Origin: a virus
IMG/VR virus record: IMGVR_UViG_3300008050_000022
Span: 41,938 to 105,937 of that record
Length of the DNA stretch: 64,000 nt
Reading direction: 5' to 3' (one strand)
The notes beneath the pieces are model-generated. The model made no database searches. It had not been told where the DNA came from and worked only from the letters and a program-made list of their open reading frames with translations. The translations under genes and the position numbers were made by a program. Below, in pieces: positions 15,691 to 47,653 of this stretch (position 1 is the stretch's first letter; each line of letters opens with the position of its first letter).

Positions 15691-16331
15691 ACCACCCGGA
15701 GTTCGTAGATGACCTCTAGCGTACGCCCAGTCGTCTTGGTGAAGGGGTCGAAGGTCTTGTAGCCAACCGGAGCGGTCAGCTTAGCCGTGTCGAATGCCGT
15801 AGGACGCGGAGGGATGTTGCTGTTGGCTGGATCACCGTCCGTGAAGCAGCCGAATTCAGTGAGTACGACTGGGCCGGCCAGGCTGATCTCTGTCTCGGCG
15901 TATTCTCGGATGAGCTGCACCGAGGTCTTCGGGGTACCCAGACTGACGGAGGGGAAAGTGGCAGGGACCTGAGCCGCTGCCAGGAACTCTCCTGCGACGT
16001 AGGGAACAGGATCCACCAGGCGAGCTACCGCAGCTACCTCAGGGGTAGAGCCGGTGCCTAGGCCGAAGTACAACAGAGCGTCATCACGATTCTTGGTACG
16101 CGTAGGAACCAGCGAGGCCAGGCTGATGGTCTCGACGATGTACTCACGACCCGTCAGGGTCCAGATGTTGTGTCCTTCCCGGCGGCTACCGGGAACGATC
16201 TTCCCCCGTTCCCGCATAAGGCACGAGAAGTGGCCCCCGATGGTGGGGCCGTCGTGGGGCGGGGTGTCAGGCGACGGACCACGGCCACCGAAGAAGAGCC
16301 TGTCTGCGATCCTTGCGAAGTCTTTGAACAT
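15687..16331 (-). CDS. Baseplate/tail-collar-like structural protein
   Basis: HNIWTLTG...YFGLGTG...LTEFGCF...YKTF.PFTKT...LEVIYEL resembles fibre-attachment domains. Confidence 0.65.
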   Translation of the reverse strand: MFKDFARIADRLFFGGRGPSPDTPPHDGPTIGGHFSCLMRERGKIVPGSRREGHNIWTLTGREYIVETISLASLVPTRTKNRDDALLYFGLGTGSTPEVAAVARLVDPVPYVAGEFLAAAQVPATFPSVSLGTPKTSVQLIREYAETEISLAGPVVLTEFGCFTDGDPANSNIPPRPTAFDTAKLTAPVGYKTFDPFTKTTGRTLEVIYELRVV

Positions 16332-16333
16332 TC

Positions 16334-21049: not shown

Positions 21050-21074
21050 TAGATGCTCGTGCTAGCCTTCAGGA

Positions 21075-21353
21075 ATGCTGGTTGAAATGACTGAAGAGGA
21101 GTTGTTGGCCGCCCTTGAGGGAGAGGAGTGCATCCTAGACCAGGTGGCTCAGCCCGGACTAGACGCTGTGAAGTCGGCAACCTGCCCGGAGTGCGGGGCT
21201 CGCCCCCTCCCCATGGTTGATCCGCACAACCCTCTGCATGCATTCTTGCCGACATTCAACTACGTCGCCAACTGCCCGGACTGCGGGTGCCAGTTCAGCC
21301 CACAGAGTGGAGTGATACGGAAAGTAGGAGGGTTCAGCCCGATCATCACCTGA
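21075..21353 (+). CDS. Zn-ribbon protein on the opposite strand inside the virion operon
   Basis: CPECG...CPDCG; fills the gap between two - strand genes; TAGCCT-N6-ATG upstream. Confidence 0.7.
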   Translation: MLVEMTEEELLAALEGEECILDQVAQPGLDAVKSATCPECGARPLPMVDPHNPLHAFLPTFNYVANCPDCGCQFSPQSGVIRKVGGFSPIIT

Positions 21354-26592: not shown

Positions 26593-27236
26593 TACGCCAC
26601 CAGGTTCACTAGGGCAGCATCTCCTGCCATTGAGATCAGCTCGACCCGTCCCTGCAAGGTTCCGGACTGCGGTTCGAAGCTTACAGATACCACCCGGGCA
26701 GCGGCCAGCCTTTCATCCGCTGGGAGGGTGACGCGATTAGCCTGCAGTTCCAGGATCTGGCTCTTTGTTCGAGCGACGGCTTGAACGAACGAGGTCTTGA
26801 GGTCAGGGCGAGTTGGGGCCCCTGCTACCTGGCCCACCAGGGCCAGCAAGTTCCCTCCGATGTCGGGGCGGTACACGTCCCGGCCAGGCGTGGTCAACAG
26901 CACCTTCGTGAAGAGCTGCGCTAGAGACATGAGCCCCGACAGGAGTCCTGTCTCTAGCTTCGGCTTGATGATGCTTCGCTCCGTGAGGGTAAACGTGCTG
27001 CTAAGTACTTGGATCGTACGAAGGCGATCATCCCGAAGCTGTTCGGGACGATCAACTAGCAGCACGGAAGAAGAGAAGATCGCAAAGGTGGTCACTACGC
27101 CGTTGAGCAGCACTTCGGTGACTTTTCGGAAGTCTACTCCGGTGACTTTGTAGAGGACGGGGTACGTACTAGCGATCACCTCCACCCTGCTGACAGGGAC
27201 TATGTCCTGGACCGAGATGATTTGCAGATCGCTCAT
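26592..27236 (-). CDS. gp25-like baseplate/sheath initiator with N-terminal Ig-like domain
   Basis: LAQLFTKVLLTTPGRDVYRPDIGGNL...ERL is the GPW/gp25 pattern. Confidence 0.75.
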   Translation of the reverse strand: MSDLQIISVQDIVPVSRVEVIASTYPVLYKVTGVDFRKVTEVLLNGVVTTFAIFSSSVLLVDRPEQLRDDRLRTIQVLSSTFTLTERSIIKPKLETGLLSGLMSLAQLFTKVLLTTPGRDVYRPDIGGNLLALVGQVAGAPTRPDLKTSFVQAVARTKSQILELQANRVTLPADERLAAARVVSVSFEPQSGTLQGRVELISMAGDAALVNLVA

Positions 27237-32792: not shown

Positions 32793-33086
32793 CTACTCCG
32801 CCCCAGCCAGGCGGAGAAGCGATCCCTCCACACGAGTCATCGTCTCGCCGATCTTCTTCAGCTCAGCACGCAGCTCTACGAGGCTGATGTCTCGCTCGTG
32901 CTTGACTGCCTCGAGGACTACTACCCGGGCCTCTAGCTTGACCGCTTTGGTCTGCTCGGCGGCGAAGTCTCGCTGTAGATCGTGGAACGCCAAATAGCCG
33001 CTCAAGACGATGGGCAACAATCCGATGATGTACCAGCCGATCTTGCCGGCCCAGCTGGGAATCTTGATCGTAGTCGGCTCGGACAT
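32793..33086 (-). CDS. N-terminal TM + coiled-coil protein
   Basis: GGAGG SD before ATG 33086; WYIIGLLPIVLSGYLAF followed by heptads. Confidence 0.7.
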   Translation of the reverse strand: MSEPTTIKIPSWAGKIGWYIIGLLPIVLSGYLAFHDLQRDFAAEQTKAVKLEARVVVLEAVKHERDISLVELRAELKKIGETMTRVEGSLLRLAGAE

Positions 33087-33087
33087 C

Positions 33088-33477
33088 TCAGCCTCCCTTG
33101 AGCAGCACGGCTGCAGCTGCCGTAAGGATTGCTCCCACAGTACCGCCCGCAACTAGTCTGGAAAACCACTTTTGCCAATCGGCCTGCTGCTCTAGGCGAT
33201 CTAGGCGGGTGGGTAGGTCCTGTTTTTCGGCGGCCTCTGCTGCCTTCTTGAGGGCAGCGACAGCTCCTACCAGGCCGACTTCCCCGTTGCCCAGCAGAAT
33301 CTTCCTCACGGACGCTGCGTCAGTCGCTCCCTGCTTCGAAAGTGCTTTGACTTCTGCGAGCTCTCGGGGTAGCGCACGAATGTCCTTCAGTTCTGGGGCG
33401 GACAAGGAATGTCCACTGTCTTGCTGCTCCCTGACCGCCTCCAGAAGGGAGATAATTCGTTCCTCGGACTCGGTCAT
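33088..33477 (-). CDS. Coiled-coil + C-terminal TM protein (holin/XhlA-like architecture)
   Basis: L.GNG..GL...V..L..RLDRLEQ...W..RLVAGGTVGAILTAAAAVLL. Confidence 0.65.
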   Translation of the reverse strand: MTESEERIISLLEAVREQQDSGHSLSAPELKDIRALPRELAEVKALSKQGATDAASVRKILLGNGEVGLVGAVAALKKAAEAAEKQDLPTRLDRLEQQADWQKWFSRLVAGGTVGAILTAAAAVLLKGG

Positions 33478-33561
33478 CCTGTCCCCGTGAGTAGTCCCCG
33501 GATTGCCTACGTGCGTGCGACCAAATGATGGACGGCTGAGCCGTCTAGGGCAATCACGAAG

Positions 33562-33990
33562 TCAGGGGGTGAAGCGAGGGGTGTCTACTGGGACTATTCG
33601 GGCAACCGTGAACTGGTCCTGAGCTGCCCCAACCAGGTCCAGGAGATCCGCAGAATGTGCGTTGGGGACGGTGATTCTTCTGGTGATGCCAGTGCCCGTC
33701 AGAGTTACCTCAAAGGTGCTGCCCCGCAGAAGGAAGATTTCCGCCTCACCTCGAGCATCTGTGACTGTGGCTACTCGCCCGCCAGACAAGAAGGCCAGGC
33801 CCCCAACTCCGAGGTGCTGAAGGTTCCCCAGGGTACTGTCGAAGGCGATTGTCCTGCCCACCGCAGGCTGACCATCTCCGCCCAGCCACCGAACGAACAC
33901 ACGGCATAGCTCCTCCCTAGGGGCCCGAGCAGAGCTGCGAGCGCCTAGGACCAGGCCGTTGAGTGCGTAGCCGGTGTAGCTCGGCATCAA
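33562..33990 (-). CDS. Putative virion protein, paralogous to the middle domain of 30694-31590
   Basis: Shared CR.......G.P...TD..G.....L.RG..F.V.L.G.......P......L.DL pattern. Confidence 0.65.
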   Translation of the reverse strand: MMPSYTGYALNGLVLGARSSARAPREELCRVFVRWLGGDGQPAVGRTIAFDSTLGNLQHLGVGGLAFLSGGRVATVTDARGEAEIFLLRGSTFEVTLTGTGITRRITVPNAHSADLLDLVGAAQDQFTVARIVPVDTPRFTP

Positions 33991-35027
33991 GTCACCTCGA
34001 GCGCTACGAAGTCCGAACTGTCAGCGAAGACTCTCAGAACCGTCGTCCCGAGCGTGATGTCGTCCAGAGCGATGAGAGTCCCGGTTGGCACACGTCGAAA
34101 CCGCTGCAAGGTGCCGACTAGCTGCCTTACCCCCGCCGTGCCGTTGTAGACGAAGATGTCGGAGACGGGCACCGAGCCGTAGTCATCACTCGGGAGGACC
34201 GACGTACCGAGCAGGTCGATCAGGGAAGTCCACAGCAGGACGTGGTTGAGTGCTCCCAAATACGCATCCGTGCTGTGCAGGGCATGCGGGACTGCATCCT
34301 CCAGCACCCCACCAGAGTCTCCCCAGAGGATCACGGGCTGAGGATCGACTGCCACTAGCGCCAGCGTGTCGTATGTCTCTGCCAGAGCGACGACCAGGTT
34401 GATCTCGCGATCAGGGATGTTGACCGAGGCGACCTGCACCCTCTCCACGTTCGCCGGCCCGTTGGCGTTCTGGTTCACTACCCAGAGGTACTGACCTGCC
34501 TCCAGGTTCGTGAAGTCCGTTCCAGCTCGGAAGTACAGCCGGGTAGAGGCCGTGGTGTTCGTCCCCGTCTTCGGGCCGTCTAGGAGACCGAAGAAGTCTC
34601 GCTGGGCAGGGATGGCTGGAGGTAGGGCTCCGAAGTAGCCCTTGTTGTAGTCCGCCCCTACCAGACAGCAGATCGCGACGCCGTCAGCGTCAGCGTTGAG
34701 CCACCCCGTCATCGCCCCGTTGGTTAGCTGGATGCACGATCCGCCGACCAGGTCACCAACCTCGTTGTACCCGGTGCCTGCGGACCAGTACGAGTACGCA
34801 CGGAAGTCGATCTTCTCTCCGGCCGAGTCGTGCGTAGCCCTAAGCCACAGCCCCTTACGCTGATCAGAGCCAGCGCTGTAGTACACGCGATCCTGCGCTC
34901 CCAGGGCCGCACTGACCTCTTGGGCGAGGGTCCAGCCCGCTGCTAGAAGAGCTTGGCGAAGTCCGTTCGCGGAGTCGATCAGATCATCGATGTCCGCAAA
35001 GGCCTGATTGGTAACGATCGCGGGCAT
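33987..35027 (-). CDS. Putative virion structural protein
   Basis: 346-aa beta-rich ORF in the late operon. Confidence 0.65.
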   Translation of the reverse strand: MPAIVTNQAFADIDDLIDSANGLRQALLAAGWTLAQEVSAALGAQDRVYYSAGSDQRKGLWLRATHDSAGEKIDFRAYSYWSAGTGYNEVGDLVGGSCIQLTNGAMTGWLNADADGVAICCLVGADYNKGYFGALPPAIPAQRDFFGLLDGPKTGTNTTASTRLYFRAGTDFTNLEAGQYLWVVNQNANGPANVERVQVASVNIPDREINLVVALAETYDTLALVAVDPQPVILWGDSGGVLEDAVPHALHSTDAYLGALNHVLLWTSLIDLLGTSVLPSDDYGSVPVSDIFVYNGTAGVRQLVGTLQRFRRVPTGTLIALDDITLGTTVLRVFADSSDFVALEVT

Positions 35028-35030
35028 GCA

Positions 35031-35345
35031 TCACGCCGATCTAACCACCCGCACCAGCACCTTGCGCTCGGCGTCGTACGAGTAGCTACGGACAGCCGTT
35101 TCCGGATCTGCCAGGTTCATGTCGTCCAGAGCCGTCCGCATCAGCTCGAGCTGAGCACGGGCGCTCTCTGCTACTTCTCTCTGGCAGTCTCGCAGATGGC
35201 CTCGGGCCAGGTCCACGCGTAGTGCAGCGTTCTCGATTCGGAGCTGCGTGAGCTCGTCCAGGGGGATGATGGGAGGTAGCTCCGTCGTCCGGGCTACTAC
35301 AGCCTCTTCTACCTGGGCATCTACGCTCTTCTTCGCTGCGGTCAT
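35031..35345 (-). CDS. Hypothetical coiled-coil protein
   Basis: AGGAG SD; operon position. Confidence 0.65.
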   Translation of the reverse strand: MTAAKKSVDAQVEEAVVARTTELPPIIPLDELTQLRIENAALRVDLARGHLRDCQREVAESARAQLELMRTALDDMNLADPETAVRSYSYDAERKVLVRVVRSA

Positions 35346-35347
35346 CG

Positions 35348-35545
35348 TTACTCCTGTAGGAAGGTCTCTAGCTTGTCCACCAAGAAGATCTCGGCGGTTT
35401 GGGCATTCAGCCGGCGCAGTGTACTCGACCCCGACCTGCCTTCGAGCACGGCCTTCAAGAACTTGACCTCGTTGTTCACGCGGTCACGCTCTTTATCGAT
35501 CCACTCTCGAGCGGACGATTCTAGGTCGTCTAGGCTAGATGCCAC
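35348..35545 (-). CDS. Small hypothetical protein downstream of the sigma factor
   Basis: GGGAG SD; overlaps the sigma stop codon. Confidence 0.6.
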   Translation of the reverse strand: MASSLDDLESSAREWIDKERDRVNNEVKFLKAVLEGRSGSSTLRRLNAQTAEIFLVDKLETFLQE

Positions 35546-36326
35546 CGCCGTACTCCCGGAACTTCTTCTCTACTTTGTTCTTTATACGGGAGACAGTGGG
35601 GGCCGACACGCCAATCCTCTTAGCAATCTCACCGGTTCCCAGCGTGGGCTTACCGTTGAGACCGAGCGAGTACTCGAGGACAGTGTACTCACGGGGAGCC
35701 AGCTCGTACTTGATCAGCCGAATGATCTCCAAGTCCTTGGGAGGGATCATGGAGGAAGGATTTGAGAGCTCTACTGCTCCCTCGTAGCCTGACGTCAGGA
35801 GATCCCTCCGCATCTCCAACTGCATGCGGTTCACCTCTGCAGGCGCCCACTGCAGCTTGTCCGAGATCTCCATGGAAGTGGGCTCTCGACCGAAGTCCTC
35901 AGACAGCTGACTCAGCGCCCCCTTGTACTCCGTGATCTTGTTGATCCGCTTCTCGGGAATCGCTCCGACGTTCTGGTACTTCTTGATGAAGCGGCCGGAC
36001 TTTCGAAGAAGTCCGTAGACGTGAGTGCTGAGCGCAGCAGGCTTGCCGGACTTCTTACCGACGTAGTTCGGATCGTAGGTACGGAAGGCGTTGAGCAGCT
36101 GCTGGTTCACCTCCGCCTCGATCACGGGGGTAGGCAAGGGCACCCGTCCAGAGAACTTCCTAACCTGACTCTGTGCCAGGTTCTGGAAGGAGGCTACGAG
36201 GGGTTCCAGCTTGACCGGATCCTCTCCCGATGCCTTCCACTGGTTCCACATCTCCATCTCTGCCTGCCGACGGGCAGACAAGCCGGGCCTCTTGGCGGCC
36301 AGCTTGTGGAGGATGTCCTCGTCCAT
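35535..36326 (-). CDS. Sigma-70 family (group 3, FliA/SigF-like) RNA polymerase sigma factor
   Basis: W..WK..G....LE.LV; region 2 LLNAFRTYDP....LSTHV; region 3 L...FGREPTSMEISDKL.W...EV; region 4 L.PRE..VL...GL.G......EIAKRIGVS..TVSRI. Confidence 0.9.
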   Translation of the reverse strand: MDEDILHKLAAKRPGLSARRQAEMEMWNQWKASGEDPVKLEPLVASFQNLAQSQVRKFSGRVPLPTPVIEAEVNQQLLNAFRTYDPNYVGKKSGKPAALSTHVYGLLRKSGRFIKKYQNVGAIPEKRINKITEYKGALSQLSEDFGREPTSMEISDKLQWAPAEVNRMQLEMRRDLLTSGYEGAVELSNPSSMIPPKDLEIIRLIKYELAPREYTVLEYSLGLNGKPTLGTGEIAKRIGVSAPTVSRIKNKVEKKFREYGGGI

Positions 36327-36856
36327 TACCTGAAGCCGGGGTTAGGGAGCGGTACCGTAGTGGCTTGAGCGTTAGAGGGAGGGGTAGGTACTCCAGATCT
36401 ACCAGCGTTGAACCTGAACGCCGACTGATCCGCCTTCAAGGAGCTTTTAGCCGCCGTCAGGGTGCTAGGAGGAGAGAAGGCGGGGCGCTTGATCTTCGCC
36501 AGACCGTTCCTACGGAGATCGACTCCAATGTCTGCCGCAGTCTTCTCAGCCGACTCGCGGTAGTTCTTCAGGACGCCCTTGTACCCCCGGCGGGTGGACA
36601 GCTCTTCCAGGTACTTGTCCCCTGCAGCGACAGCCCCTCCGATAGCCGCCCCTGCAAGGTGGTGCTTACGGCCAGGGTTCTTGGCCCCGAAGCTGGCCAG
36701 CATGCCTCCCGGGATGGCCCCGATCACTCCTCGATGAGCGTACGGGCGCGCAGAGTCGATCTTTCGCAAGACCCTCTTCTTCCGCTCACGCGACTTCGCG
36801 TTCTCTGCCAACTTCAGCAGCTCGAGTCCGAATGCCTGGTAGACGAGGTGGTTCAT
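36326..36856 (-). CDS. Basic glycine-zipper protein with AFGxExxKLA leader (candidate internal head protein)
   Basis: MNHLVYQAFGLELLKLA, internal EKTAA, Gly/Ala hydrophobic segments. Confidence 0.7.
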   Translation of the reverse strand: MNHLVYQAFGLELLKLAENAKSRERKKRVLRKIDSARPYAHRGVIGAIPGGMLASFGAKNPGRKHHLAGAAIGGAVAAGDKYLEELSTRRGYKGVLKNYRESAEKTAADIGVDLRRNGLAKIKRPAFSPPSTLTAAKSSLKADQSAFRFNAGRSGVPTPPSNAQATTVPLPNPGFR

Positions 36857-37080
36857 CCGCCGTATCGCTGCATCATCCTCTGGGCCTTGAGCTGCCGCCT
36901 CTGCTGCTTCCGCACCCTGTGGCCCACGGAGATGTCCTTAGCTGCCTGCTGCGCTCCTACGGTGCCTACAGCGCCGGCTAGGAGGCCTTGCTGGACCTTG
37001 CTGAAGCGAGCCTCCTTGGTCCACGGGGCGGACTTGCTCACCGCGATCTTGATCATCTCTTCACCGAAAGCACTGAACAT
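36853..37080 (-). CDS. Small basic protein with AFGxExxKIA leader (candidate internal head protein)
   Basis: GGAGG SD before ATG 37080; MFSAFGEEMIKIA...KEA...GLLAGAVGTVGA. Confidence 0.7.
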   Translation of the reverse strand: MFSAFGEEMIKIAVSKSAPWTKEARFSKVQQGLLAGAVGTVGAQQAAKDISVGHRVRKQQRRQLKAQRMMQRYGG

Positions 37081-37084
37081 CTGT

Positions 37085-40000
37085 CTATCCCTCCAAGCCT
37101 CGACCAAGATCGCCGCCTCGGCCTAACAATTCTCTGCGGTACGCCAGAACCTTAGCGCGTCTGGCTTGCCGAGGGTCCATATCCGGATTCAGCTGAATCG
37201 GCGTTCCCATGGAGACCTTGGGCATTCTCTTGTTCGGGTCGTTGATCAACCCTTTCAGTCCGGTTAGCTCTGCTACTGCCCGACTATGGAACCCTTCTTC
37301 CCCTTTGGTCAACGCGCCATCCTTGTCGAACTCGACATGACGGCCCAGCACCTCATCCATCCTAGCAACTGGGCGGAAGGTGTAGTTCTGAATGAACTTG
37401 GTCAGGTCCAGGTGATCTCCTTGAGAGGACTTCAAGTGCCCGTAAACGGTCGCTAGTGCGTCAACTGCCTGAGCAATAGACACACTCTGCTCCACCTTGA
37501 TCTTGACTGCCTCAGACTTCTCCGCCGCCGCCGTACCGTCTGTGGATGGGACAGTGACGTCCACATCCACGTAGACATGGCCCGACCTCAAAGAGCCTAG
37601 ACGATCCGCTTCGCTCAGCTGGAACACCTGATCGTCTACTACCGACCCGGTACCGAATAGCGGCTCGTACACCTTCTTGCCGATCTTGTCGTTGTAGTAC
37701 ACGTCGGAGAACCAGGGAGGGAACAACGCCATCTCTACAGGCGTTTGGATCTTCGTAGTAGCGAAGGCCTCCTTGTCCTCTCTGCTGAACGTGACTCTTT
37801 CCTCAATAATGATGTCGGAGAAGAACACTGCACCGTGATCAGCTGGGTGCTCTTCAGGCACTCCGGCCGGCACGGCGCCCGCACCCCATGATTCTATATA
37901 GGGGCCCACACCCCCAACCGTAACGGAAGTGATCGTCCCTCCATTGATCCCGACCGTATCGAGTAACCGTATCTCTGCGTCCCCCTGCAGATCCTCTAGA
38001 GAGGGGAGTTCTACTGACATTGAGGCGCTGACGGATCTTCCGTACAGGAACTTCGCAGCTTCTGGAGAGTCCGTGATGTTTGACGTGACGTGATCGAAGT
38101 GGGTGATCATGGTCACGCCAGCCAGCGCCCTTTCCCGCGCCCCGATGAAGAGGTTGAGGAACTCATCATCAGATCCGTCAGCCGTTCTATGTGAGCGGGC
38201 CTGCGTGAACGAGACTGACGAGGTCCCTCCGGACTGACTAATGGAGTGGGACAGGGAGCTGACCAGTCCGAGCATGGCAGTAGGCAGGTACGTGATGCCC
38301 CCCTCTAGCTCAAAGCCGGTGACGGACTCCTTAATCTTGCTGAAGACCTGCTGCACGGTCATGTCCCCTGGAGGAGTGAACCCCCTCTGGATCACTACGC
38401 CGGGGAACCCCAAAGCCAGGTACGGGTTGAAGTAGCAGCTCACCTCCATCGATCTAGACGAGAAGCGGTGCCGAAAGAAGTTGAAGTCTGCGACATGCTT
38501 CCTCAGAGCGTCCGCGTCCGAGGAGAGTCCTTGCGCTGCTCGAGCCTCCGTCAACGTCTTGTTGGCGAAGAAGTTGACCTGGCCCATGCGCTCGAAGCGA
38601 GGAACGATTCCTGTGAACCGCTCGTGCTGCATCGTGAAGTTCTTGGTGAGATGGCCGCCTGCCTCAAACTCCTTCCGGAACTCCTCGACCCGGGGGGAGT
38701 AGTTGAAGGACGCTAGTAGGGCGTTCTCCTCCGATCCGAGGATCTCCAGGTTTGTTCGCAGCTGGATGCGAGAGACCTCTCGCATGTACCCACGGGCGTA
38801 GTTCACGCTGAGCTGCTGCTCTGGGAAGATCACGTTGCATCGTGGAGGGGCCACGAACCAGACGTCCGGCCGGATGATCTGCGTGAGCAGGCGCGCTGCT
38901 CGCCTCTTCTCCGCGAAGCTCGAGGCCTCCCTGGTAGGGATGTCAGCCAGTCCGCTGCCCCTGCCCCGCACCAGCTTCGGCACCACTAGAGCCGTGTACT
39001 CATCCGGTGTAGTGAAGGGAGGAGAATCGCGCTTACCCTGCTGCTGTGCGATGACGTCGTCAGGGAATTTCGTATTCCCTGGTTCGTTGACGTAAGCCGG
39101 GTAAAAGACCTTCATCAGGAGACTGCGAAGGCTCCACCCTTCGGCGGGTGGGCGAGCGCCCCTAGTGAAGTACTGGTACATGAGCTCGAAGTGCTCCTCT
39201 GGGGTGAGCTCCAGGATCAGAGTACCGACCTCCCGCCTAGCCCGCTGGGTCTTACCGAGCTGGATATCGAGATCATCCGCACTGTGGCCCCCCTCTATCG
39301 TCCCCTTTTCCCACTTCTTCCTCCAGACGACGTTCCTCTTCTGGAAGTGGCTCACCTTCGCTGCCAGCAAGGGGAGGTCGTACACATTCGCTGGAGTGAA
39401 CTGAATCAGTCCTGTAGCGAAGGTCCCTGGAGGCGGCTCTGTTACGTCCTCCCAGTTCTTTGTGTTCTGGCTGGCGATGTTCCACTCAGACTCTTTTTGG
39501 ATGATGGCTGCCAGGTCGTAAGGATCTGCGCCGATCTTGCGGGCCAAGGCCACGCACCTCTGCGCGAGATCCAGGTTGCACCCACCTATCCGGCCATGAT
39601 GATCAGCGATCTCCCGCGCGGCCAACTCGTCTGACACCGCCGAGGTGGCGACTATCTCATCCGACAGACCCGAAACCCGCTCCCCTAGAATGTATCGCGG
39701 CGTCGGATTGGGGCAGATGTTGTGGTACGTGTGCGAGTTGAAGAGCCCTACGACATCTCGGAAGCTCACGAGATCGCCCATGCCTCCTAGTGAGTTCTCC
39801 AACCACTGGGTAAACGCCTTCGCCTTGAAGAGCTCTCCGGCAGTGACGTCGTCCTCCACTGCCCCGACCTGGTGAGTGTTCTTGACTCGGAGTTCGGCGA
39901 TTGTGTTGTACAGATTCGCCCCAGCCCGAATACCGGGAACCCCTCCCACTGCTTCAAGTGTGTGAATTACTCCTCCTAGAAGTCCTGTGGCGTTCTGCAG

Positions 40001-40519
40001 ATCAGGAGTCAAGGGAGTCTTGGTCAGCATCCCCGCCAGCACTGTGGAGGGGTTGTTCACCACGTCATCGAAGAGGTTGTCACTAGCGCCCAAGTACGCG
40101 GCGGGACGCTCTGCGAGCTTGTCGCTAGACACACTCATCATGTACTGGAAGGTGGTGTCCCAGTAGGAGCTGGTGTCCAAGCACTGGAACGTCACCGACC
40201 TGCTGCCAGGCGACTTGCTCATGCTTACGGAAACGATCTCCCCGCAGAACATGAGTCGATACTGTCCCCGATCCTTGGCCTCTCCCCACTCATCTTCAGG
40301 GATCGTCCACCTAGCCGGACCTGCTCCCTCGTCTAGGTAAAACAGATGAACCAACGTCCTTGGCTTGAGCTCCAGAGCGCGATCAGTCGGAACTACCTGG
40401 ACGTTGGCGGATGCTCCGCTCCCTATGGAGGCGTTGACGGAAGCGCCTACTACAGGAACTTCGATTCCTTCGAGGAACAGCCGCAGGTGGATCTTACGTC
40501 CTTGGCCGTGCGCCGCCAT
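37085..40519 (-). CDS. Baseplate hub-like protein with an inserted lytic transglycosylase (SLT-like) domain
   Basis: LRLFLEGIEVPV N-terminus; LAAIIQKESEWN...ATGLIQFTP catalytic motifs; FNPY...GFPG. Confidence 0.75.
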   Translation of the reverse strand: MAAHGQGRKIHLRLFLEGIEVPVVGASVNASIGSGASANVQVVPTDRALELKPRTLVHLFYLDEGAGPARWTIPEDEWGEAKDRGQYRLMFCGEIVSVSMSKSPGSRSVTFQCLDTSSYWDTTFQYMMSVSSDKLAERPAAYLGASDNLFDDVVNNPSTVLAGMLTKTPLTPDLQNATGLLGGVIHTLEAVGGVPGIRAGANLYNTIAELRVKNTHQVGAVEDDVTAGELFKAKAFTQWLENSLGGMGDLVSFRDVVGLFNSHTYHNICPNPTPRYILGERVSGLSDEIVATSAVSDELAAREIADHHGRIGGCNLDLAQRCVALARKIGADPYDLAAIIQKESEWNIASQNTKNWEDVTEPPPGTFATGLIQFTPANVYDLPLLAAKVSHFQKRNVVWRKKWEKGTIEGGHSADDLDIQLGKTQRARREVGTLILELTPEEHFELMYQYFTRGARPPAEGWSLRSLLMKVFYPAYVNEPGNTKFPDDVIAQQQGKRDSPPFTTPDEYTALVVPKLVRGRGSGLADIPTREASSFAEKRRAARLLTQIIRPDVWFVAPPRCNVIFPEQQLSVNYARGYMREVSRIQLRTNLEILGSEENALLASFNYSPRVEEFRKEFEAGGHLTKNFTMQHERFTGIVPRFERMGQVNFFANKTLTEARAAQGLSSDADALRKHVADFNFFRHRFSSRSMEVSCYFNPYLALGFPGVVIQRGFTPPGDMTVQQVFSKIKESVTGFELEGGITYLPTAMLGLVSSLSHSISQSGGTSSVSFTQARSHRTADGSDDEFLNLFIGARERALAGVTMITHFDHVTSNITDSPEAAKFLYGRSVSASMSVELPSLEDLQGDAEIRLLDTVGINGGTITSVTVGGVGPYIESWGAGAVPAGVPEEHPADHGAVFFSDIIIEERVTFSREDKEAFATTKIQTPVEMALFPPWFSDVYYNDKIGKKVYEPLFGTGSVVDDQVFQLSEADRLGSLRSGHVYVDVDVTVPSTDGTAAAEKSEAVKIKVEQSVSIAQAVDALATVYGHLKSSQGDHLDLTKFIQNYTFRPVARMDEVLGRHVEFDKDGALTKGEEGFHSRAVAELTGLKGLINDPNKRMPKVSMGTPIQLNPDMDPRQARRAKVLAYRRELLGRGGDLGRGLEG

Positions 40520-41790
40520 CAGAGAGCCGGATTAACCGCTGACAGGCCGCCCATGACATTGTCCTCCCTAGGAGCGCCTGTCGTCGTGGGTAGCATCATA
40601 TCTCGAACTACGAAGGCCCCGTGGGTAGGCGGATCATCTACGGACCCGGCGGACATCTCACCGTTGGCTGCAAGCATCTGCCCACCCACCACAGTCATGG
40701 CCCCCTGCAGATTGCCGGACAGGTTCTTCTTCAGAACCCCAAAGCTCTTGTCGTGTACCTCGGTCGGGTTCTCGGGGGTGCTGCCTTGCTGCCTCAGCTC
40801 AGCCCACATTTGATCTTGCCGAGCCGTCGCCTCTGCCTCGGCATCGAACTCCCCTCCTCCTGCCCCGTACACGTACTCATCCACGTTGTCGTAGATGTTG
40901 CTCCTGATGGAGTCCCTGTCTCTTCCCTCGTAGACTGTCCCCGAAACTGGGGGCACGGTGTAGTAGGTGCCGTCGGCGTCCTGGTAGTACTCCTTCTCGG
41001 GATCTGTCCACAGCTGCAGGGCATCCACCTTGTAGGGTTCGTTGAGCGCGTCAGCAATCTCCTGAGTCCGCCTACTCCTGATGTCGGCCACCTTGTCCTC
41101 GGCAGCGCGTAGAGCGGAGTGTCCAGGGAACTCCGCAGCTCCAATGTCGCTGCTGTCGTGGTACCCCGTCACCCACATCGAGAAGTTGAGGGACACCAGG
41201 TTGGGGTTCGCTTCTGCCTGCTGCCCGATCGCGGAGTTCAGCATGTACCCCTCAACGACGATGTCGTCGTAGGAGATGTACAGCCGAGCATTCCGCTCCA
41301 CCAGCTTCGTGCCCCGAAAGATGTTCTCGTAGTTCTCCCACCACTCCGATCGCCAGTTGAAGTCAGCGGTGTTCACCAGCACTCCACTGAACTGCACTAC
41401 TCGAGGTCGCTCCCCAAAGAAGAAGCCGTAGGCCTGGCCGAAGGTCTCCAACAACTGCAGCTTCTCGTCTCTCGATTCGCTGACGGACTGGAGAATGTAG
41501 TTGGCCGACATGTCGGCGCTCTTTGTCTCGTTCGGCGGGGCACTGGAGTTGATGAGTCCTACAGGAGCTCCCCCTGCATCCAGCACCCGCATGGTCGAGT
41601 ACGTGTTCGGCGTCACCTGGATGCCTCGAGTAGGTCTACGGACGTAGAGCCCTCCGTACGAGCTCTCCCCAACGGTCACCTTCCTCCGATACGCGGTTGA
41701 GCGAGTCGTACTGTGCTCCCGACCCACAGTAGCGGCTACCTCCTCCGGCGAAGCGTGGAATACTTCTTCCTCTAAGGTGATGATCGTCAC
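40519..41790 (-). CDS. Tail/baseplate structural protein (tube-initiator-like)
   Basis: LQSVSESRDEKLQLLETFG..YGFFFGERPRVVQFSGVL; lies between the tape-measure-like and hub genes. Confidence 0.6.
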   Translation of the reverse strand: MTIITLEEEVFHASPEEVAATVGREHSTTRSTAYRRKVTVGESSYGGLYVRRPTRGIQVTPNTYSTMRVLDAGGAPVGLINSSAPPNETKSADMSANYILQSVSESRDEKLQLLETFGQAYGFFFGERPRVVQFSGVLVNTADFNWRSEWWENYENIFRGTKLVERNARLYISYDDIVVEGYMLNSAIGQQAEANPNLVSLNFSMWVTGYHDSSDIGAAEFPGHSALRAAEDKVADIRSRRTQEIADALNEPYKVDALQLWTDPEKEYYQDADGTYYTVPPVSGTVYEGRDRDSIRSNIYDNVDEYVYGAGGGEFDAEAEATARQDQMWAELRQQGSTPENPTEVHDKSFGVLKKNLSGNLQGAMTVVGGQMLAANGEMSAGSVDDPPTHGAFVVRDMMLPTTTGAPREDNVMGGLSAVNPAL

Positions 41791-42020
41791 ATTCTCACCC
41801 TTCCGCGTGCCAGCAGGTAGTCCGTGACGTCTCTGCCGTACTCTGGCGTTCCGCCAGAACCTGTCTTGACCTTCGCGGCGTAAGCCTTGATCGCGTTCAC
41901 CATGAAGTCGTCAACGATCGCCTCACTCAGGATGCGGATCCGCTTGATCCGCACACCTCGACCTACCGTGAACTCCTCGACCCTCTCTTCTCGGGATCGG
42001 ATCTCGTCGAACTGACTCAT
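41787..42020 (-). CDS. Small hypothetical protein
   Basis: ATGA/GTGA coupling on both sides. Confidence 0.65.
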   Translation of the reverse strand: MSQFDEIRSREERVEEFTVGRGVRIKRIRILSEAIVDDFMVNAIKAYAAKVKTGSGGTPEYGRDVTDYLLARGRVRM

Positions 42021-45000
42021 GGATGCTTCTCCAGCTCGATGAGCTTCTTGTCGTGCCCCTCCACCACCTTGTCCATAGACTCTATCGCGAGCGTCTGACT
42101 TGTGATCAAGGTGTCCATACCCCCTATCAGACCCTCCATCTTCGTCATGAGGGCCGTCTCTACGTGCATGGAGCGAACACGCGTACCTCCGGATTGTGCG
42201 ATCGAGGCAGCACTGCTCAAGCCGACGCCTCCCGCCGCTACCTCTGCAAGTTCGCTGGGGCTGAGGTCTCCCGATACGGTGTCGGAGATCTTACCTCCCA
42301 ACGCATCGACGAGCCCTTCCTCCACTCCGGCCCTCTCCAGAGCCCCGGTGATGTCGGCTTCATCTGACCCGGGACCTAGAGCAGAGACGGCATCGTAGGC
42401 TTCGAGCTGTGCTTTGAGCGTGGCTCCTGCCCCTCGCCCCAGATTACCGATGGCGCGGAGCATGGCTTTACGCTTCACCTTGTCCGGGGGCAGTGCCGCT
42501 ACGATGTCAGCCAAGAAGTTGGTGGCGTCTCTACCACTGGCCCGCTCTTCAGCGTACTTCACAATAGCGTCCTTGAGATCGCCCTTGACGCGCGAGGTAC
42601 TCTTCAGCGCACCCAACAACTTAGATCCTTCATCTGCTAGGGCGGAGGAGATCCTGGTCCCGCCAACAGCCGTGAGGTACTTGTCCACTCGAGTCAGGTT
42701 CCCACGGATGGCCGCGGCCGAGTTCGGGCTGGCCCGCGACATGCTGACCACCGCAGCGGCCATTGCCTGCGCCTGCTCTCCTCCAGCCTCCCCAAAGACG
42801 GCCGACAATTCGGGGTTGTCTCCGCCTCCGCCGAAGTCCTTCCAGGCGTCTACATCCGTCTCAAGTATGTCCCCCTTCAGGATCCGCATTATGGCTTCCC
42901 GCTTAGCAGGGTCATCCATCATCCGTTCCAGCGTACTGGCCTGTTTGTCAGTCACATCCAGGGAACCTCTCTTATCGCGCTGCATAGCTCCCCAAGAGAG
43001 TCCCCCTGCAGCCCCGAGCCCCATACCCGCCAGAATCCCGGACCCCATCCATGCGAGCGGTGCGGCAACCGCACCAGCGATGCCTCCGAGCGCTATCCCA
43101 CCTGTGTTCATGACTGCCCTCTCAGCCCAGGCCCCCTTCCCCCTGTTGAACAGATCTGACATGGACGCATCTACGCCCCCCTGTGCAAGCTCCTCTAGAG
43201 CATTGGCTCGGAAGGTGCCTCCGCCGAAGTCCTCACGCCCCCCTCCCCGCATGATCGCTGTAACGGCTTCCAGAGCTCGCCCCTTAGACGCAGGATCAAT
43301 GGCGTTCGCCCCGATACGATCTGTGCCGATGTGAGCAAGCCCCGACCCCTCCTTCACGCCTATCTCTCGAATGATCGCAAGCGCCTCGCGCTGTCCAGCG
43401 GTGCGACTCCCCTCCTTGGAGTACATCAGTGCGTCCAAGACCTGCTCTGCGGACTTTTTCTTGTCCCCCTTGATGCCCTTGTCGTACATCAAAGCACCGA
43501 GGCCCCGAGATGCGGTCGTGACTCGGTCCTGGTCAACGTGCTGGAGAACCCCTACTCCAGCCCCCATCCCCGTCTCTCGAGCAACAAGATCCATGATCTT
43601 GTCTACGTTATCTTCAGTGATCTTGACGGATCCTGAGGGAGAGAACGCCTTCATCTGCAAGCGGGTGGCCTCGGAGAAGTTGTCGGTGTCCAGGACCTGA
43701 CCGATCAACGCTCCCCGCATCAAGTCAGACCGCTCCGACTGTGACATGGTTTGGAGTCGCCTCATCTGATCGTCAGAGAGTGATGACGACTCGTATCGGC
43801 CGTAGATCGTGTTGGCAATGCTCTCCACGCCCATCTCGATATCCGTGCCGATGTCTCCACCAACTCCCTTGATCGGGTCGGAAACGCTCTCCTTCCACCC
43901 CTGCTTGATGCGTCTCTTCACCCCTCCCCACGATCGGTAGTGCTCCCGCTCGTACTCTCTGGCCCGGGACTGGATCAGCTGCCGAGCTTCCTGACCCTGC
44001 TCCCGACGAATGTCGTCGTACTCTCCCGACATCTTGACCAGGAACGCTGCCGTCTGACGGTCCACGCCGGCGATCTTGTCCATGACTAGAGTGATCATGT
44101 CGTTCTTATCGGCACCCGGCTCGAGCTTGTCTACGATGCTCCGGACGATCGCCATCATCGCCTCGTTACCCCCACCCTGAGCAAAGTTGCCGGACATTTC
44201 GTGGGACTTGGCCGCGAAGGATGCCTTCCCTCGCACATCTTGAGTTCTCTCTCCTGCTACGGAGAGCATCTTGTCTATGCCCACGCGGCCCGAAAGGATG
44301 TCGTCCATGGCACCGGCGTTCATGCGGCCTGTAAACCGACCGTCCTTCATCTCGCCGGCGTAGATCATTGCAGCTTGGCCAGCCTGCCCTTGCGTGAACT
44401 GCATGGAGGCTTCGCCCAGCCGCTGCCCCATAGCCGCGTATGCGTCAGCCCCCTCCATGCCAGTTGCCTCAATCAGATCCTCGGAGGAGATGACCCCCAT
44501 TCGAGCAGCGGTACCCACTGCAGCAGCGAGTCCGGTATTCAGCCTGGCTCCCGTACCTCTCCGAGCCCCTATTTGGGCAGCCGTAGCAGCTCCAGATCTC
44601 TCGAGCCCCGTGACCTGTTGAGCGCTCAACCCGTGCGTACCCAGTACCTGCCGCTGCAGGGTTCCTCCTAGGACGTCTTGGGCGGTGTACAGGCCCGAGG
44701 AACGCATAGATCCCAGGAGCTCCGCTGCCTCTGTCATTGACGTGCTGAACGTATGAGAGATCTTCTTGACGGAGTCGATCATGCCCTTGAACTTCTTCTC
44801 GAAGTCCTGGGCACTGCGGACGGTCTGCATCATCCCCATGTCGCTCATCGACTGGAAGGTCTGCATGATGTCGTCCATGCCGGTCTGCGAGGTGGTAGCC
44901 ACACTCCGCATGGTCTTAGCGATCTGACTGACGTCCTTCGGGTTGAACCCCTGCCCCGAGAAGGCGTTGGGGTTCGCGAAGGAGTAGTTCTGGGACATCA

Positions 45001-45433
45001 TGTTGCCGACTTGGGCGGTCTCCCGGTACCCCGACACCATCTGGTTGGCTCCGTAAGCCAGAGCACCTACCCCTGCAAAAGCAGGGAGACTGGCAAGGGC
45101 ACCTAGAGAACCTCCTCCCAGTCCTCCCACAGAGCCCATCAGTCCCCTTCCGGTGACTCCGAGACCCATCTTGCCTCCGGCCCAGCCTCCTAGCCCGACC
45201 CCCATCATTCCCATTCCGGCGAACCCTGTGACCTTGTTGGCCAGGTTCAGTGGCGCGGCTGCCGCCGACAACGCGTTGCCAGCTGCCCCTCGACCAAGGC
45301 CGTGAATTCCTGGATGGACGGGCATAGGCATGTGTAGCCCCGCCCCGACGGACTGGGCCATCTGCTGGCCCTGCATCGCCATTTGCTGCTGCTGACCGAT
45401 CAGCGCGGCTGTTTGATCAGATGTCCAGACCAC
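42017..45433 (-). CDS. Tape-measure-like protein
   Basis: 1138 aa, Gly/Ala/Met-rich and helical with glycine-zipper segments; upstream of the hub and baseplate genes. Confidence 0.7.
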   Translation of the reverse strand: MVWTSDQTAALIGQQQQMAMQGQQMAQSVGAGLHMPMPVHPGIHGLGRGAAGNALSAAAAPLNLANKVTGFAGMGMMGVGLGGWAGGKMGLGVTGRGLMGSVGGLGGGSLGALASLPAFAGVGALAYGANQMVSGYRETAQVGNMMSQNYSFANPNAFSGQGFNPKDVSQIAKTMRSVATTSQTGMDDIMQTFQSMSDMGMMQTVRSAQDFEKKFKGMIDSVKKISHTFSTSMTEAAELLGSMRSSGLYTAQDVLGGTLQRQVLGTHGLSAQQVTGLERSGAATAAQIGARRGTGARLNTGLAAAVGTAARMGVISSEDLIEATGMEGADAYAAMGQRLGEASMQFTQGQAGQAAMIYAGEMKDGRFTGRMNAGAMDDILSGRVGIDKMLSVAGERTQDVRGKASFAAKSHEMSGNFAQGGGNEAMMAIVRSIVDKLEPGADKNDMITLVMDKIAGVDRQTAAFLVKMSGEYDDIRREQGQEARQLIQSRAREYEREHYRSWGGVKRRIKQGWKESVSDPIKGVGGDIGTDIEMGVESIANTIYGRYESSSLSDDQMRRLQTMSQSERSDLMRGALIGQVLDTDNFSEATRLQMKAFSPSGSVKITEDNVDKIMDLVARETGMGAGVGVLQHVDQDRVTTASRGLGALMYDKGIKGDKKKSAEQVLDALMYSKEGSRTAGQREALAIIREIGVKEGSGLAHIGTDRIGANAIDPASKGRALEAVTAIMRGGGREDFGGGTFRANALEELAQGGVDASMSDLFNRGKGAWAERAVMNTGGIALGGIAGAVAAPLAWMGSGILAGMGLGAAGGLSWGAMQRDKRGSLDVTDKQASTLERMMDDPAKREAIMRILKGDILETDVDAWKDFGGGGDNPELSAVFGEAGGEQAQAMAAAVVSMSRASPNSAAAIRGNLTRVDKYLTAVGGTRISSALADEGSKLLGALKSTSRVKGDLKDAIVKYAEERASGRDATNFLADIVAALPPDKVKRKAMLRAIGNLGRGAGATLKAQLEAYDAVSALGPGSDEADITGALERAGVEEGLVDALGGKISDTVSGDLSPSELAEVAAGGVGLSSAASIAQSGGTRVRSMHVETALMTKMEGLIGGMDTLITSQTLAIESMDKVVEGHDKKLIELEKHP

Positions 45434-45446
45434 CTACGGCTCCTGG

Positions 45447-45483
45447 TGAAAGAATCGGGGAGGCGCTGGGATAAGACTACTGT
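45447..45483 (+). promoter_or_regulatory. Candidate phage-sigma promoter, copy 1
   Basis: TGAAAGA-N14-GGGATAAG-acta-CTGT; matches copy 2 at 47579. Confidence 0.55.
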
Positions 45484-45755
45484 CTAGATGCAGTCGTGGG
45501 GTCAACAGAGGCACCGTTGGTGACCATGGAGTTGACTCCTTCCCGGGACGACTGACCATCGAGGCAACCCCGAATTTTCTGTACCAGGTACGTCCGTACC
45601 ATGGCGTCTTCGAAGCTCGTCAGAGCGCCGGCGCCCTGAGACCTCAGCCATTCATTTAGCAATTCAGTCTCGGAGTCTAACAGTTCCTTCATCTCCGCCT
45701 GGGAAGAAGGGACGGGGACGCCATCCACTAGAGACAGAGAGAAACGGGACTTCAT
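45477..45755 (-). CDS. Hypothetical protein at the head of the late operon
   Basis: Strong AGGAGG SD; LTSFEDAMVRTYLVQK. Confidence 0.7.
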   Translation of the reverse strand: MKSRFSLSLVDGVPVPSSQAEMKELLDSETELLNEWLRSQGAGALTSFEDAMVRTYLVQKIRGCLDGQSSREGVNSMVTNGASVDPTTASRQ

Positions 45756-45817
45756 GAGGACCTCCTAAGGTCCCGCACGCTACCACGCTGCCCGATCCGG
45801 GCGTAACAAGGAGATGA

Positions 45818-46351
45818 GTGATGCCGAATTGGTGTGAGAACAAGCTGGGGATCAGCGGCCCAGAAGGAGAGTTGAACCTCTTCCTGCTCAGGGCGAAGGG
45901 GGAGGAAGGGAAGCCGCTGAGCTTCCAGAGTCTGTACCCCATGCCTGAAGAGCTGGCGGGCACCTCCAGTCCGGGGGACAGCCCCAACTGGTACGACTGG
46001 AGGGTTCAACACTGGGGGACGAAGTGGGACGTCGGGGACGTGCACGCTGCCGAAGGCTCTGCCACCTCGGTTGAGTTCAGCTTCGACACCGCGTGGGCCC
46101 CTCCCACGGCCCTGATCGAGAAGGTCTCGGAGGACTTCCCAGGTCTCCGATTCCGGCTCGACTACGCGGAGATGGGCATGTGCTTTGCCGGCTTCGAGGA
46201 ACGCCAGGCAGGCGAGCTCCTCGAGGGGTCTCAAGGAACGCCGGAGGACTACGAGTGGAGCAGGAAGCTCATCTGGAACTGGTGCGAGGACTGCGATGAG
46301 GACTACCAGCCCTACGTCAATGGGCACACGTGCGAGAAGGAGGAGAAGTAA
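45818..46351 (+). CDS. YubB/DUF1281-like ferredoxin-fold protein
   Basis: MPNWCENKL.I.G...WYDWR...WGTKWD...FDTAW.PP...Y.E.GM.FAG. Confidence 0.85.
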   Translation: MMPNWCENKLGISGPEGELNLFLLRAKGEEGKPLSFQSLYPMPEELAGTSSPGDSPNWYDWRVQHWGTKWDVGDVHAAEGSATSVEFSFDTAWAPPTALIEKVSEDFPGLRFRLDYAEMGMCFAGFEERQAGELLEGSQGTPEDYEWSRKLIWNWCEDCDEDYQPYVNGHTCEKEEK

Positions 46352-46971
46352 TGGGAACGAGGCATTTGATCTGCATCGTCGTGGACGGCAGGTTCGCCAC
46401 GGCACAGTACGGACAGTGGGACGGCTATCCCGGCGGACAGGGCGCCGACATCGTGAAGTGGTTGCGAGGCACAACTCCTGAGGAGATGGAGGTCTTCAAG
46501 ACGCATGCACGTGCCGCCAAGGTGCTCGATCCCAAGGAGTACGACCGGCGCTGGACGGCCTGCGGGCACGATGGCGGTCGATTCGTCAGCATGGACATCT
46601 CTGGTCGCTTCAAGGGGCAGTGGCCGCACCTGTCCAGGGATCATGGCAGCAACGTGCTGAACTACTTCCTGGAGACGGCGGAGCCGGAGGCCTTGGACCA
46701 GGATCCCAGCTTTGCGGCCGACAGCCTGTTCTGTGAGTGGGCCTACGTCCTGGACTTGGACAACCTGGCCTTGGAGGTGTACGCGGGATTCCAGAAGGAA
46801 GCGCACACCGAGGGCCGCTTCCACGACCTGCCCTACCTCCCTCCCGAGCACCGCAAGGATGCGGAGCAGGAGTACTTCCCCGTCAGGCTGGTCGGGAAGT
46901 GGAAGTTCGACGACATCCCGGAGGACTGGCAGAAGCAAGTCAGTCCTCCTGATGAGGAGGATGAGGAGTAA
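46351..46971 (+). CDS. Phage conserved hypothetical protein (MGTR...DGYP type)
   Basis: TAATG overlap; MGTRHLI...QYGQWDGYP.GQG...FCEWAYVLDLD...LEVY. Confidence 0.8.
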   Translation: MGTRHLICIVVDGRFATAQYGQWDGYPGGQGADIVKWLRGTTPEEMEVFKTHARAAKVLDPKEYDRRWTACGHDGGRFVSMDISGRFKGQWPHLSRDHGSNVLNYFLETAEPEALDQDPSFAADSLFCEWAYVLDLDNLALEVYAGFQKEAHTEGRFHDLPYLPPEHRKDAEQEYFPVRLVGKWKFDDIPEDWQKQVSPPDEEDEE

Positions 46972-47357
46972 TGGGGGCAGACCTGATCTTGGCCTACGCC
47001 GAAGTCCCTGAGCCCTTCACCGATGGCACGGTGGGGGAGCTCCGGGCACTAGCAGCGAATCCACCGAACCTCCTGTTCGACATGGTGGCGGATAGGTTGG
47101 AGTACGACGACGAAGCTGACTCGAGAGCAGATGTGACGGACAGGCTTCGTACTGCCGTCGACGTCGTGTTCGTCGAGTATTACCACCGAGGAGGTATGCA
47201 CCGAGAGCTGGCCACCATTGCCATCCGCGATCGTGAGTACATCTTCACTGGCGGTATGTCGTGGGGAGATCTGCCCTCGGACGTCTACGAGGACGTCTGT
47301 ATGGCAGCGATGCTGTCGGAGATGTTGATCAAACGAAACGAACAGTCAGGGTCGTAG
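46971..47357 (+). CDS. Hypothetical protein
   Basis: TAATG overlap; MGADL...TGGMSWGD.PS..Y. Confidence 0.75.
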   Translation: MGADLILAYAEVPEPFTDGTVGELRALAANPPNLLFDMVADRLEYDDEADSRADVTDRLRTAVDVVFVEYYHRGGMHRELATIAIRDREYIFTGGMSWGDLPSDVYEDVCMAAMLSEMLIKRNEQSGS

Positions 47358-47399
47358 GGATCCTGGCTTCCGGGATCCCCTTCTTCGGAGGGGGATCCC
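47357..47399 (+). terminator. Two overlapping alternative hairpins
   Basis: 47357-47379 GGGATCCTGG-ctt-CCGGGATCCC and 47372-47399 GGGATCCCCTTC-ttcg-GAGGGGGATCCC. Confidence 0.55.
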
Positions 47400-47578
47400 A
47401 TAACGGGCATGTAGACGCTGAAGGAGGAAAGATGCCGAATCTCAAAGCCCTAAATCGAGTGTCAGAAAAAGAGGATAAACCACTGAAATACCTCAGTTAA
47501 ATAGGTACCTCAACAGAGGACAATAGTAGCCTGTGTCCGGCGGAGCCGGGCACCAATACTTAGCCCTAAAAACCCGCC

Positions 47579-47614
47579 TGAAAGACTGCACCATCTAGGG
47601 GATAAGGACTCTGT
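47579..47614 (+). promoter_or_regulatory. Candidate phage-sigma promoter, copy 2
   Basis: TGAAAGA-N13-GGGATAAG-gact-CTGT, about 40 nt upstream of the ligase ATG and its AAGGAGG SD. Confidence 0.6.
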
Positions 47615-47653
47615 GGAGACACAGGGACCTACCCCTGAAGGAGGTATCTACAA

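Follow-up and report, generated by a model that had tools for sequence, protein, structure and literature searches.

Why does a phage keep a gene for a bacterial-type sigma factor inside its tail operon, and which RNA polymerase (RNAP) would the product serve? The question is raised by a 64,000-nucleotide stretch of viral DNA (the window), which spans positions 41,938 to 105,937 of the IMG/VR record IMGVR_UViG_3300008050_000022, a record of 105,937 bp that is about 56% complete. On the minus strand of the window, at positions 35535 to 36326, lies an open reading frame (ORF) for a 263-residue protein predicted to belong to the sigma-70 family. In the reading that we favor, to which we give about an even chance, this sigma is associated with the virion and works with the beta-beta' polymerase that the phage itself encodes; the phage would then probably bring transcription machinery of its own to the host.

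The sigma factor and its place in the tail operon

In the Pfam search, Sigma70_r3 passed its cut-off (27.1 bits against 25.3), Sigma70_r4 reached 16.6 bits, under its cut-off of 24.1, and Sigma70_r2 gave no match above cut-off. A PHROG search returned phrog_351 (sigma factor) at 3.6e-13. The AlphaFold2 model, built with 59 homologues, has a mean pLDDT of 86.7 and is composed of sigma2 (helices 16-116, pLDDT above 90), sigma3, a disordered linker and sigma4; the part under the Sigma70_r4 cut-off is modeled as helices at residues 196-260, and the fold is matched over its full length. Foldseek aligned the model with the SigA, sigmaS and SigB chains of holoenzymes over about 270 columns at a probability of 1.0. 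A block that resembles regions 2.4/3.0, YQNVGxIPExR, and the helix-turn-helix of region 4 are conserved among the homologues. Judged by homology and the predicted structure, the protein is a genuine, divergent sigma-70-family factor, and it is most likely a working one, predicted to combine core binding with promoter-specific initiation. The initial annotation had labeled it FliA/SigF-type, for which the resemblance is only distant: TIGR02980 (2e-7, 30.9 bits) and TIGR02479 (26.2 bits) of NCBIfam lie far below their curated thresholds of 234 and 190, respectively.

The genes around the sigma are arranged as follows.

37085 to 40519, minus strand: 1144-residue tail-hub/cell-wall hydrolase protein, the conserved upstream neighbor, with a weak SLT (transglycosylase) domain
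36853 to 37080, minus strand: 75-residue protein, basic at pI 11.4, in which a strong leader at the N-terminus is combined with a glycine-zipper run
36326 to 36856, minus strand: 176-residue protein, basic at pI 10.8, in which a strong leader at the N-terminus is combined with several glycine-zipper runs
35535 to 36326, minus strand: predicted sigma-70-family factor, 263 residues, with sigma2, sigma3 and sigma4 (Pfam, PHROG, NCBIfam, AlphaFold2, Foldseek)
36297 to 36326, minus strand: proposed sigma leader, MDEDILHKLA, residues 1-10, with K-L-A at residues 8-10
35348 to 35545, minus strand: 65-residue acidic protein (pI 4.9), companion of the sigma, overlapping the sigma 3' end by 11 nt

The location of the sigma inside a tail/baseplate operon, coupled behind two small basic glycine-zipper genes, was read correctly from the beginning. 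The 75-residue ORF follows directly on the stop of the hub gene and has a GGAGGG Shine-Dalgarno sequence 8 nt ahead of its ATG; the start of the 176-residue ORF overlaps the stop of the 75-residue ORF as ATGA, and the sigma start overlaps the stop of the 176-residue ORF as TAATG, so that the ORFs overlap and no intergenic gap is left between the hub-side small genes and the sigma. Both small proteins contain G/A-xxx-G/A runs of the glycine-zipper-like kind; neither they nor most of the neighboring genes matched a Pfam or PHROG family. Downstream of the 65-residue ORF, phrog_687 marks the gene of a structural protein and phrog_6 that of a baseplate wedge, and a fiber gene is located there as well.

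How general is this arrangement? We fetched 59 related loci, with an alignment of 16 closer sequences; many of the loci come from complete contigs, and the genomes of these metagenomic relatives are 175-215 kb in size. The order of hub, zero to five small genes, sigma and baseplate is found in Salmonella phage Arash, in Vibrio phage D69 and in at least 26 of 49 metagenomic loci. In those loci the sigma begins within 0-2.3 kb after a hub-like protein that starts with (L/V)(F/Y)LEG, down to 25-30% identity, and the LFLEGIEVP signature at the N-terminus of the hub is common to the pre-sigma gene in these loci and to Arash gp8; the count is a lower bound because the regular expression missed some loci. 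A full-library search gave 578 cluster representatives of the sigma family at E<=1e-10, mostly metagenomic, which makes the family a common one in metagenomes. On the basis of sequence comparison, the sigma characterizes a large family of tailed phages, 175-215 kb in size, to which Arash is related.

The fixed place within the tail-hub/baseplate block could also be read in another way, namely that the protein is a sigma-derived structural or DNA-binding part of the tail or ejection apparatus that has no role in transcription initiation. The scores of Pfam regions 2 and 4, neither of which is above cut-off, would agree with this, as would the residues for melting the -10 element, which appear changed when the alignment is read by eye. 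A mere structural part would, however, hardly be expected to keep a complete sigma2-sigma3-sigma4 architecture, predicted with high confidence and alignable to holoenzyme sigma chains, together with the conserved YQNVGxIPExR block and region 4 helix-turn-helix, and to co-occur strictly with a phage polymerase (see below). We regard it as very improbable.

The small acidic companion, 65-83 residues in length, is translationally coupled to the 3' end of the sigma here and in five related loci (L010, L011, L012, L016 and L025), where its homologues stand directly 3' of the sigma and share 12 invariant columns. It could be a sigma partner, an anti-sigma or just a part of the baseplate.

The phage polymerase, the particles of Arash and the candidate promoters

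Then, which core enzyme would the sigma work with? In the part of the record that lies upstream of the window, we found the gene of a single-chain RNA polymerase with a beta module (Rpb2_6, 1.6e-57) and a beta' module (Rpb1 domains).

20912 to 27115 of the genome record, minus strand: fused beta-beta' RNA polymerase, 2067 residues; the portal gene stands just before it (position mapped through Arash)

All 21 sigma-bearing genomes examined, Arash and Vibrio phage D69 included, contain exactly one polymerase beta domain each. The polymerase ORF is about 2030-2150 residues long and fused in most of them, and it is split in two genes in Arash and the Vibrio phages. The initial annotation had the sigma redirect the host core RNA polymerase, which has become less likely because this genome and 21 of 21 relatives encode an RNAP of their own, and that enzyme is the top protein in Arash virions.

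Arash is the sole cultured close relative for which virion data are available. Its Gp10, annotated as an RNA polymerase sigma factor, is 30.6% identical to the sigma described here (E 2e-18 by tblastn; 5e-23 in the reverse search), and its genes are ordered as cell-wall hydrolase gp8, small gp9, sigma gp10, gp11 and structural proteins, with Vibrio phage D69 alike; gp8 is itself a virion protein. In sucrose-gradient-purified Arash virions analyzed by LC-MS, Gp10 was detected with 100% coverage, 24 unique peptides and 467 spectra (PMC10585845). The RNAP beta subunit Gp206 was the most-detected protein of all with 3516 spectra, and beta' Gp216 gave 1210, whereas helicases and primase were each represented by 2 unique peptides and the portal by 32 (PMC10585845). 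Arash also encodes a second sigma, which is missing from the virion protein table (PMC10585845).

120656 to 121693 of OQ632216.1: Arash gp196, a second, more canonical sigma, not in the virion table

The Arash authors suggested that the polymerase may act in early transcription (PMC10585845). Because the particle mass spectrometry lists Gp10, a virion-associated sigma is already reported, in passing, in Arash, and the earlier statement that none had been described is not accurate as far as presence in virions is concerned (PMC10585845). The literature search found no functional study of a virion sigma and, for this family, no experimental data on enzyme injection or on early transcription independent of the host polymerase; the mReC paper makes no mention of sigma. 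The packaging of the sigma that had been predicted for the present phage thus has a precedent in a homologue which is found in particles whose protein table lacks gp196, and the precedent is a single relative at 31% identity.

A promoter-like motif on the plus strand provides candidate targets.

45447 to 45475, plus strand: TGAAAG-N18-ATAAG, heading a non-structural unit
47579 to 47606, plus strand: second copy, followed on the same strand by an operon with its start at 47654
7891 to 7919, plus strand: further copy, with others at positions 34712 and 46387 of the genome record

The general form of the motif is TGAAAG-N16-19-(G)ATAAG. On the plus strand the window has three copies, ahead of non-structural units, versus an expectation of 0.02; in the form TGAAAG-N16-19-ATAAG it is absent from the minus strand of the window, structural operons included. 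No sigma-70-like or phage-type promoter match was seen directly upstream of the sigma, which agrees with the absence of an early promoter of its own that the initial annotation had assumed. A scan of positions 33000-48000 for sigma-70-type promoters and terminators gave no excess over shuffled sequence. The fetched loci are structural regions and are uninformative for this motif. The plus-strand motif may be a target of the phage holoenzyme, and its distribution fits a factor that is made late and used early.

These observations can be joined into a mechanism. The sigma would be the promoter-recognition subunit of the phage's own beta-beta' polymerase. Since both genes are located in virion-structural operons, both proteins would be made late; they would travel in the particle and enter the cell together with the DNA, and early phage genes would be read without the host polymerase, candidate targets being promoters of the form TGAAAG-N17/18-GATAAG on the plus strand. 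Co-translation would couple the sigma, in this clade, to two small basic proteins that bear a strong N-terminal signal common to about ten head-region proteins. The identity of the sigma, the synteny, the co-occurrence with the polymerase, the family of leaders and the K-x-A enrichment are seen in the sequences, and the presence in virions is taken from the work on Arash (PMC10585845); the partnership with the phage polymerase, the injection, the early-gene targets and the processing are what we infer from these data.

Several points weigh against a delivered sigma of this kind. The virion evidence comes from one relative, 31% identical, and from a sucrose-gradient preparation, and the 116 'virion' proteins of Arash include ribonucleotide reductase and kinases, so that carry-over of an abundant late protein is possible. 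The co-occurrence of sigma and polymerase was tested solely in genomes picked for having the sigma. The tryptophan pair that melts the -10 element in sigma-70 appears to be replaced here in an alignment read by eye. The pairing of the sigma with the phage polymerase rather than with the host core is inferred, as are the late timing of the operon and the reading of the motif by the sigma. A second sigma was not found in this record or in its three nearest complete relatives, and a second sigma gene similar to gp196, with a strong Sigma70_r2 match above the Pfam cut-off, is present in 9 of 19 relatives; with a record only about 56% complete, a second sigma or polymerase could simply be missing from it.

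Part of this evidence would equally suit a sigma that is never delivered. In that case, the protein would be a middle or late sigma of the infected cell that drives or amplifies transcription of the structural genes with the phage or the host polymerase, its position in the tail operon would serve timing only, and the detection in Arash would be carry-over. The Arash authors raise the caution themselves that abundant enzymes may be carried over into a table of 116 proteins that includes metabolic enzymes (PMC10585845). Where the nearest relatives have no detected second sigma, one sigma might serve all classes of genes. Phage sigmas for late genes are well known, e.g. T4 gp55 and SPO1 gp34. 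The quantities in Arash speak otherwise, as the 24 unique peptides of Gp10 are like the number for the portal (32) rather than the 2-3 of clear contaminants, and gp196 is unlisted. The structural operons on the minus strand, which such a sigma would have to drive, lack the candidate promoter motif, and the position in the hub/baseplate block is kept across relatives of 25-30% identity. We consider an undelivered sigma somewhat unlikely, and we retain the virion-associated sigma of the phage polymerase as the preferred reading.

Relation to known transcription systems

The closest parallel is Arash itself, which has a homologous sigma, the same order of hub, small gene, sigma and structural genes, and a polymerase encoded beside the portal. 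It differs from the present phage in that its sigma has no leader, its polymerase is split, it has the second canonical sigma gp196, and its small pre-sigma genes are unrelated. We regard the finding as a variant of what the Arash data had already brought to light in brief; its newest element, a cleavable targeting leader on the sigma, is put forward tentatively.

As in N4, phiKZ/AR9, the crAss-like phages and P23-45, a transcription enzyme is encoded here among late or structural genes; in those phages it is in the particle and serves early genes, and in the present one the arrangement is known from genes. For the Thermus phage P23-45, the polymerase is reported to be fused to a tail protein (PMC10770324). 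None of these systems is known to use a sigma-70-family subunit; in the present phage, the beta-beta' chain and the sigma that goes with it are both of bacterial type. Reviews likewise describe the RNAP-encoding jumbo phages as having no sigma homologues (PMC7824862; PMC13282480).

From the other side, T4 gp55, SPO1 gp28/gp34 and the sigmas of RNAP-less jumbo phages are phage-encoded sigmas that set promoter specificity, as proposed here. Such phages lack a polymerase of their own, and particles are not reported to contain the sigmas; in the present family the sigma always co-occurs with a phage polymerase.

Known virion RNAPs of the N4, phiKZ/AR9, crAss-like and P23-45 types act without a sigma, and how the multisubunit ones find early promoters is poorly understood. 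In the family described here, the polymerase is of the bacterial type and is joined by a true sigma, and the particle appears to contain the two. If the preferred reading is true, this would be a compact, sigma-dependent, injected transcription machine and, given that Arash can be grown on Salmonella, a tractable model. The relation of phage polymerases to cellular ones would be touched by it as well.

N-terminal leaders and the K-x-A motif

Does the sigma carry a signal that takes it into the head? That all three N-termini end in K-[IL]-A can be read as originally quoted: KIA at residues 11-13 of the 75-residue protein, KLA at residues 15-17 of the 176-residue protein and KLA at residues 8-10 of the sigma. 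The fuller leader pattern, aromatic-x-x-E-x-x-K-x-A/S, heads many head-region proteins of this genome and sigma neighbors in the relatives. We described it with an ungapped position matrix trained on 23 similar leaders of other proteins, with the three genes in question left out, and scanned 1525 lysine sites in the proteins of the genome. The top 11 sites are all N-terminal. The 75-residue protein ranks 4th and the 176-residue protein 8th, and on these ranks the leaders of the two small proteins are real; in the latter, Y6, F9, E12, K15, L16 and A17 are invariant in four orthologues of 56-70% identity. These two proteins are probably internal or ejected head proteins.

The sigma itself is a different case. 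Its K8 site has a matrix score of -3.3 and falls in the top 6.3% of lysine sites, for which reason its leader is, taken alone, indistinguishable from chance, and we have dropped the claim that the sigma shares the strong leader; the shared leader of the initial annotation thus holds for the two small proteins and is a poor match in the third. The leaders of some sigma orthologues fall in the top 0.7-0.8% by the same matrix. In the AlphaFold2 model, residues 3-11 form a predicted short helix apart from sigma2, with a pLDDT of 68. Nearly all close orthologues (14 of 15) retain K-x-A. An N-terminal extension could be delimited in 54 family representatives; it contains K-x-A in 42 of them, where 20.7 are expected, and K-x-A-[AGS] in 25, where 5.1 are expected, the latter being a close-to-fivefold excess. 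The conservation that had been expected of the leader therefore extends to the close orthologues and to these extensions, and it ends at the sigmas of Arash, the Vibrio phages and many distant relatives, which have neither extension nor leader. The cleavable leader on the sigma is at most tentatively suggested by these sequences.

Is the motif a property of head proteins in general? Compared with shuffled sequences, K-x-A is enriched in head-region proteins only, several at z 3-5; tail proteins show no enrichment, and the phage polymerase is depleted (9 against 15.9 expected). The extreme is a 759-residue head-region protein, with 23 K-x-A against 6.3 expected (z 7.2). The major capsid protein has K-x-A at residues 26-28, at about the same place as in Arash. 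Of the structural-region genes, 15 of 47 have K-x-[AS] within the first 24 residues, compared with 7 of the 55 remaining genes (p=0.03 by the Fisher test), a weak difference in which the automatic choice of starts was wrong for several genes, the sigma among them. The usual context is L-E-K-[LTQE]-A-[SAG]-A. Such a pattern fits a predicted prohead-protease site, and alternatively the enrichment could arise from helical repeats. The leaders and the K-x-A enrichment together suggest an undescribed code for the targeting and processing of head proteins. The short K-L-A leader of the sigma may be a degenerate copy of the signal of the small proteins.

Two of these head proteins deserve a note of their own. 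The 759-residue protein (positions 14476-16755 of the genome record, minus strand) has 22 of its K-x-A in the stretch from residue 166 to residue 668, most of them spaced by 13-37 residues, and could be a scaffold or inner-body protein that is cut into peptides, or a repeat protein. The gene for the major capsid protein (positions 387-1550 of the genome record, minus strand), a homologue of Arash gp226, lies under a longer, spurious plus-strand ORF; its K26-L-A28 corresponds to K-E-A in the Arash capsid protein.

The obvious comparison is with the internal proteins of T4, which carry a capsid-targeting sequence and are processed by the gp21 prohead protease. In both cases a short amphipathic leader stands at the N-terminus of unrelated small basic proteins, and the short motif at its end shows enrichment in head proteins, too. 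Unlike in T4, the motif is K-x-A rather than L/I-x-E, the genes are in the tail operon, the sigma leader is a poor match, and the system is known here from genes alone.

With this in hand, the model of the initial annotation can be weighed as a whole. It held that the K-L-A leader targets the sigma to the capsid, that the prohead protease trims it to AKRPGL, and that the injected protein redirects the host core at once. The leader is literally present, its K-x-A is kept in close orthologues and enriched in the N-terminal extensions of the family, the motif is enriched in head-region proteins and recurs around residues 26-28 of the capsid protein here and in Arash, and the neighboring small proteins carry an unmistakable shared leader. 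The model is nevertheless confronted with a polymerase in every relative tested, with a sigma leader no better than the top 6.3% of lysine sites, and with Arash, the homologue for which virion data exist, whose sigma lacks the leader. We know of no protease with K-x-A specificity. The model as originally proposed is, in our opinion, quite improbable. A combined reading is that the family delivers a complete bacterial-type holoenzyme, a single-chain beta-beta' polymerase plus the sigma, and that the sigma of one clade has, in addition, the head-targeting propeptide of the internal head proteins, which is removed by a K-x-A prohead protease. We also find this combination unlikely, to a lesser degree; if it were true, no virion polymerase before this one would have depended on a sigma, and the code for capsid targeting and processing would be a new one.

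The N-terminus of the polymerase was considered as well. Ten relatives have a LDPxEAFExLK motif there, which has no K-x-A and is not callable as a leader.

Leader-bearing proteins also recur close to the sigma in other loci. In the subclade of L057, L059, L060 and L065, the sigma follows a cluster of them instead of the hub-like protein. The leader-bearing proteins that precede the sigma in L059, L060, L065, L010 and L011 have a basic motif, QTR-x-G-R-R-P/S-x-x-V, just past the leader, which suggests one conserved family of ejected or internal proteins of variable length.

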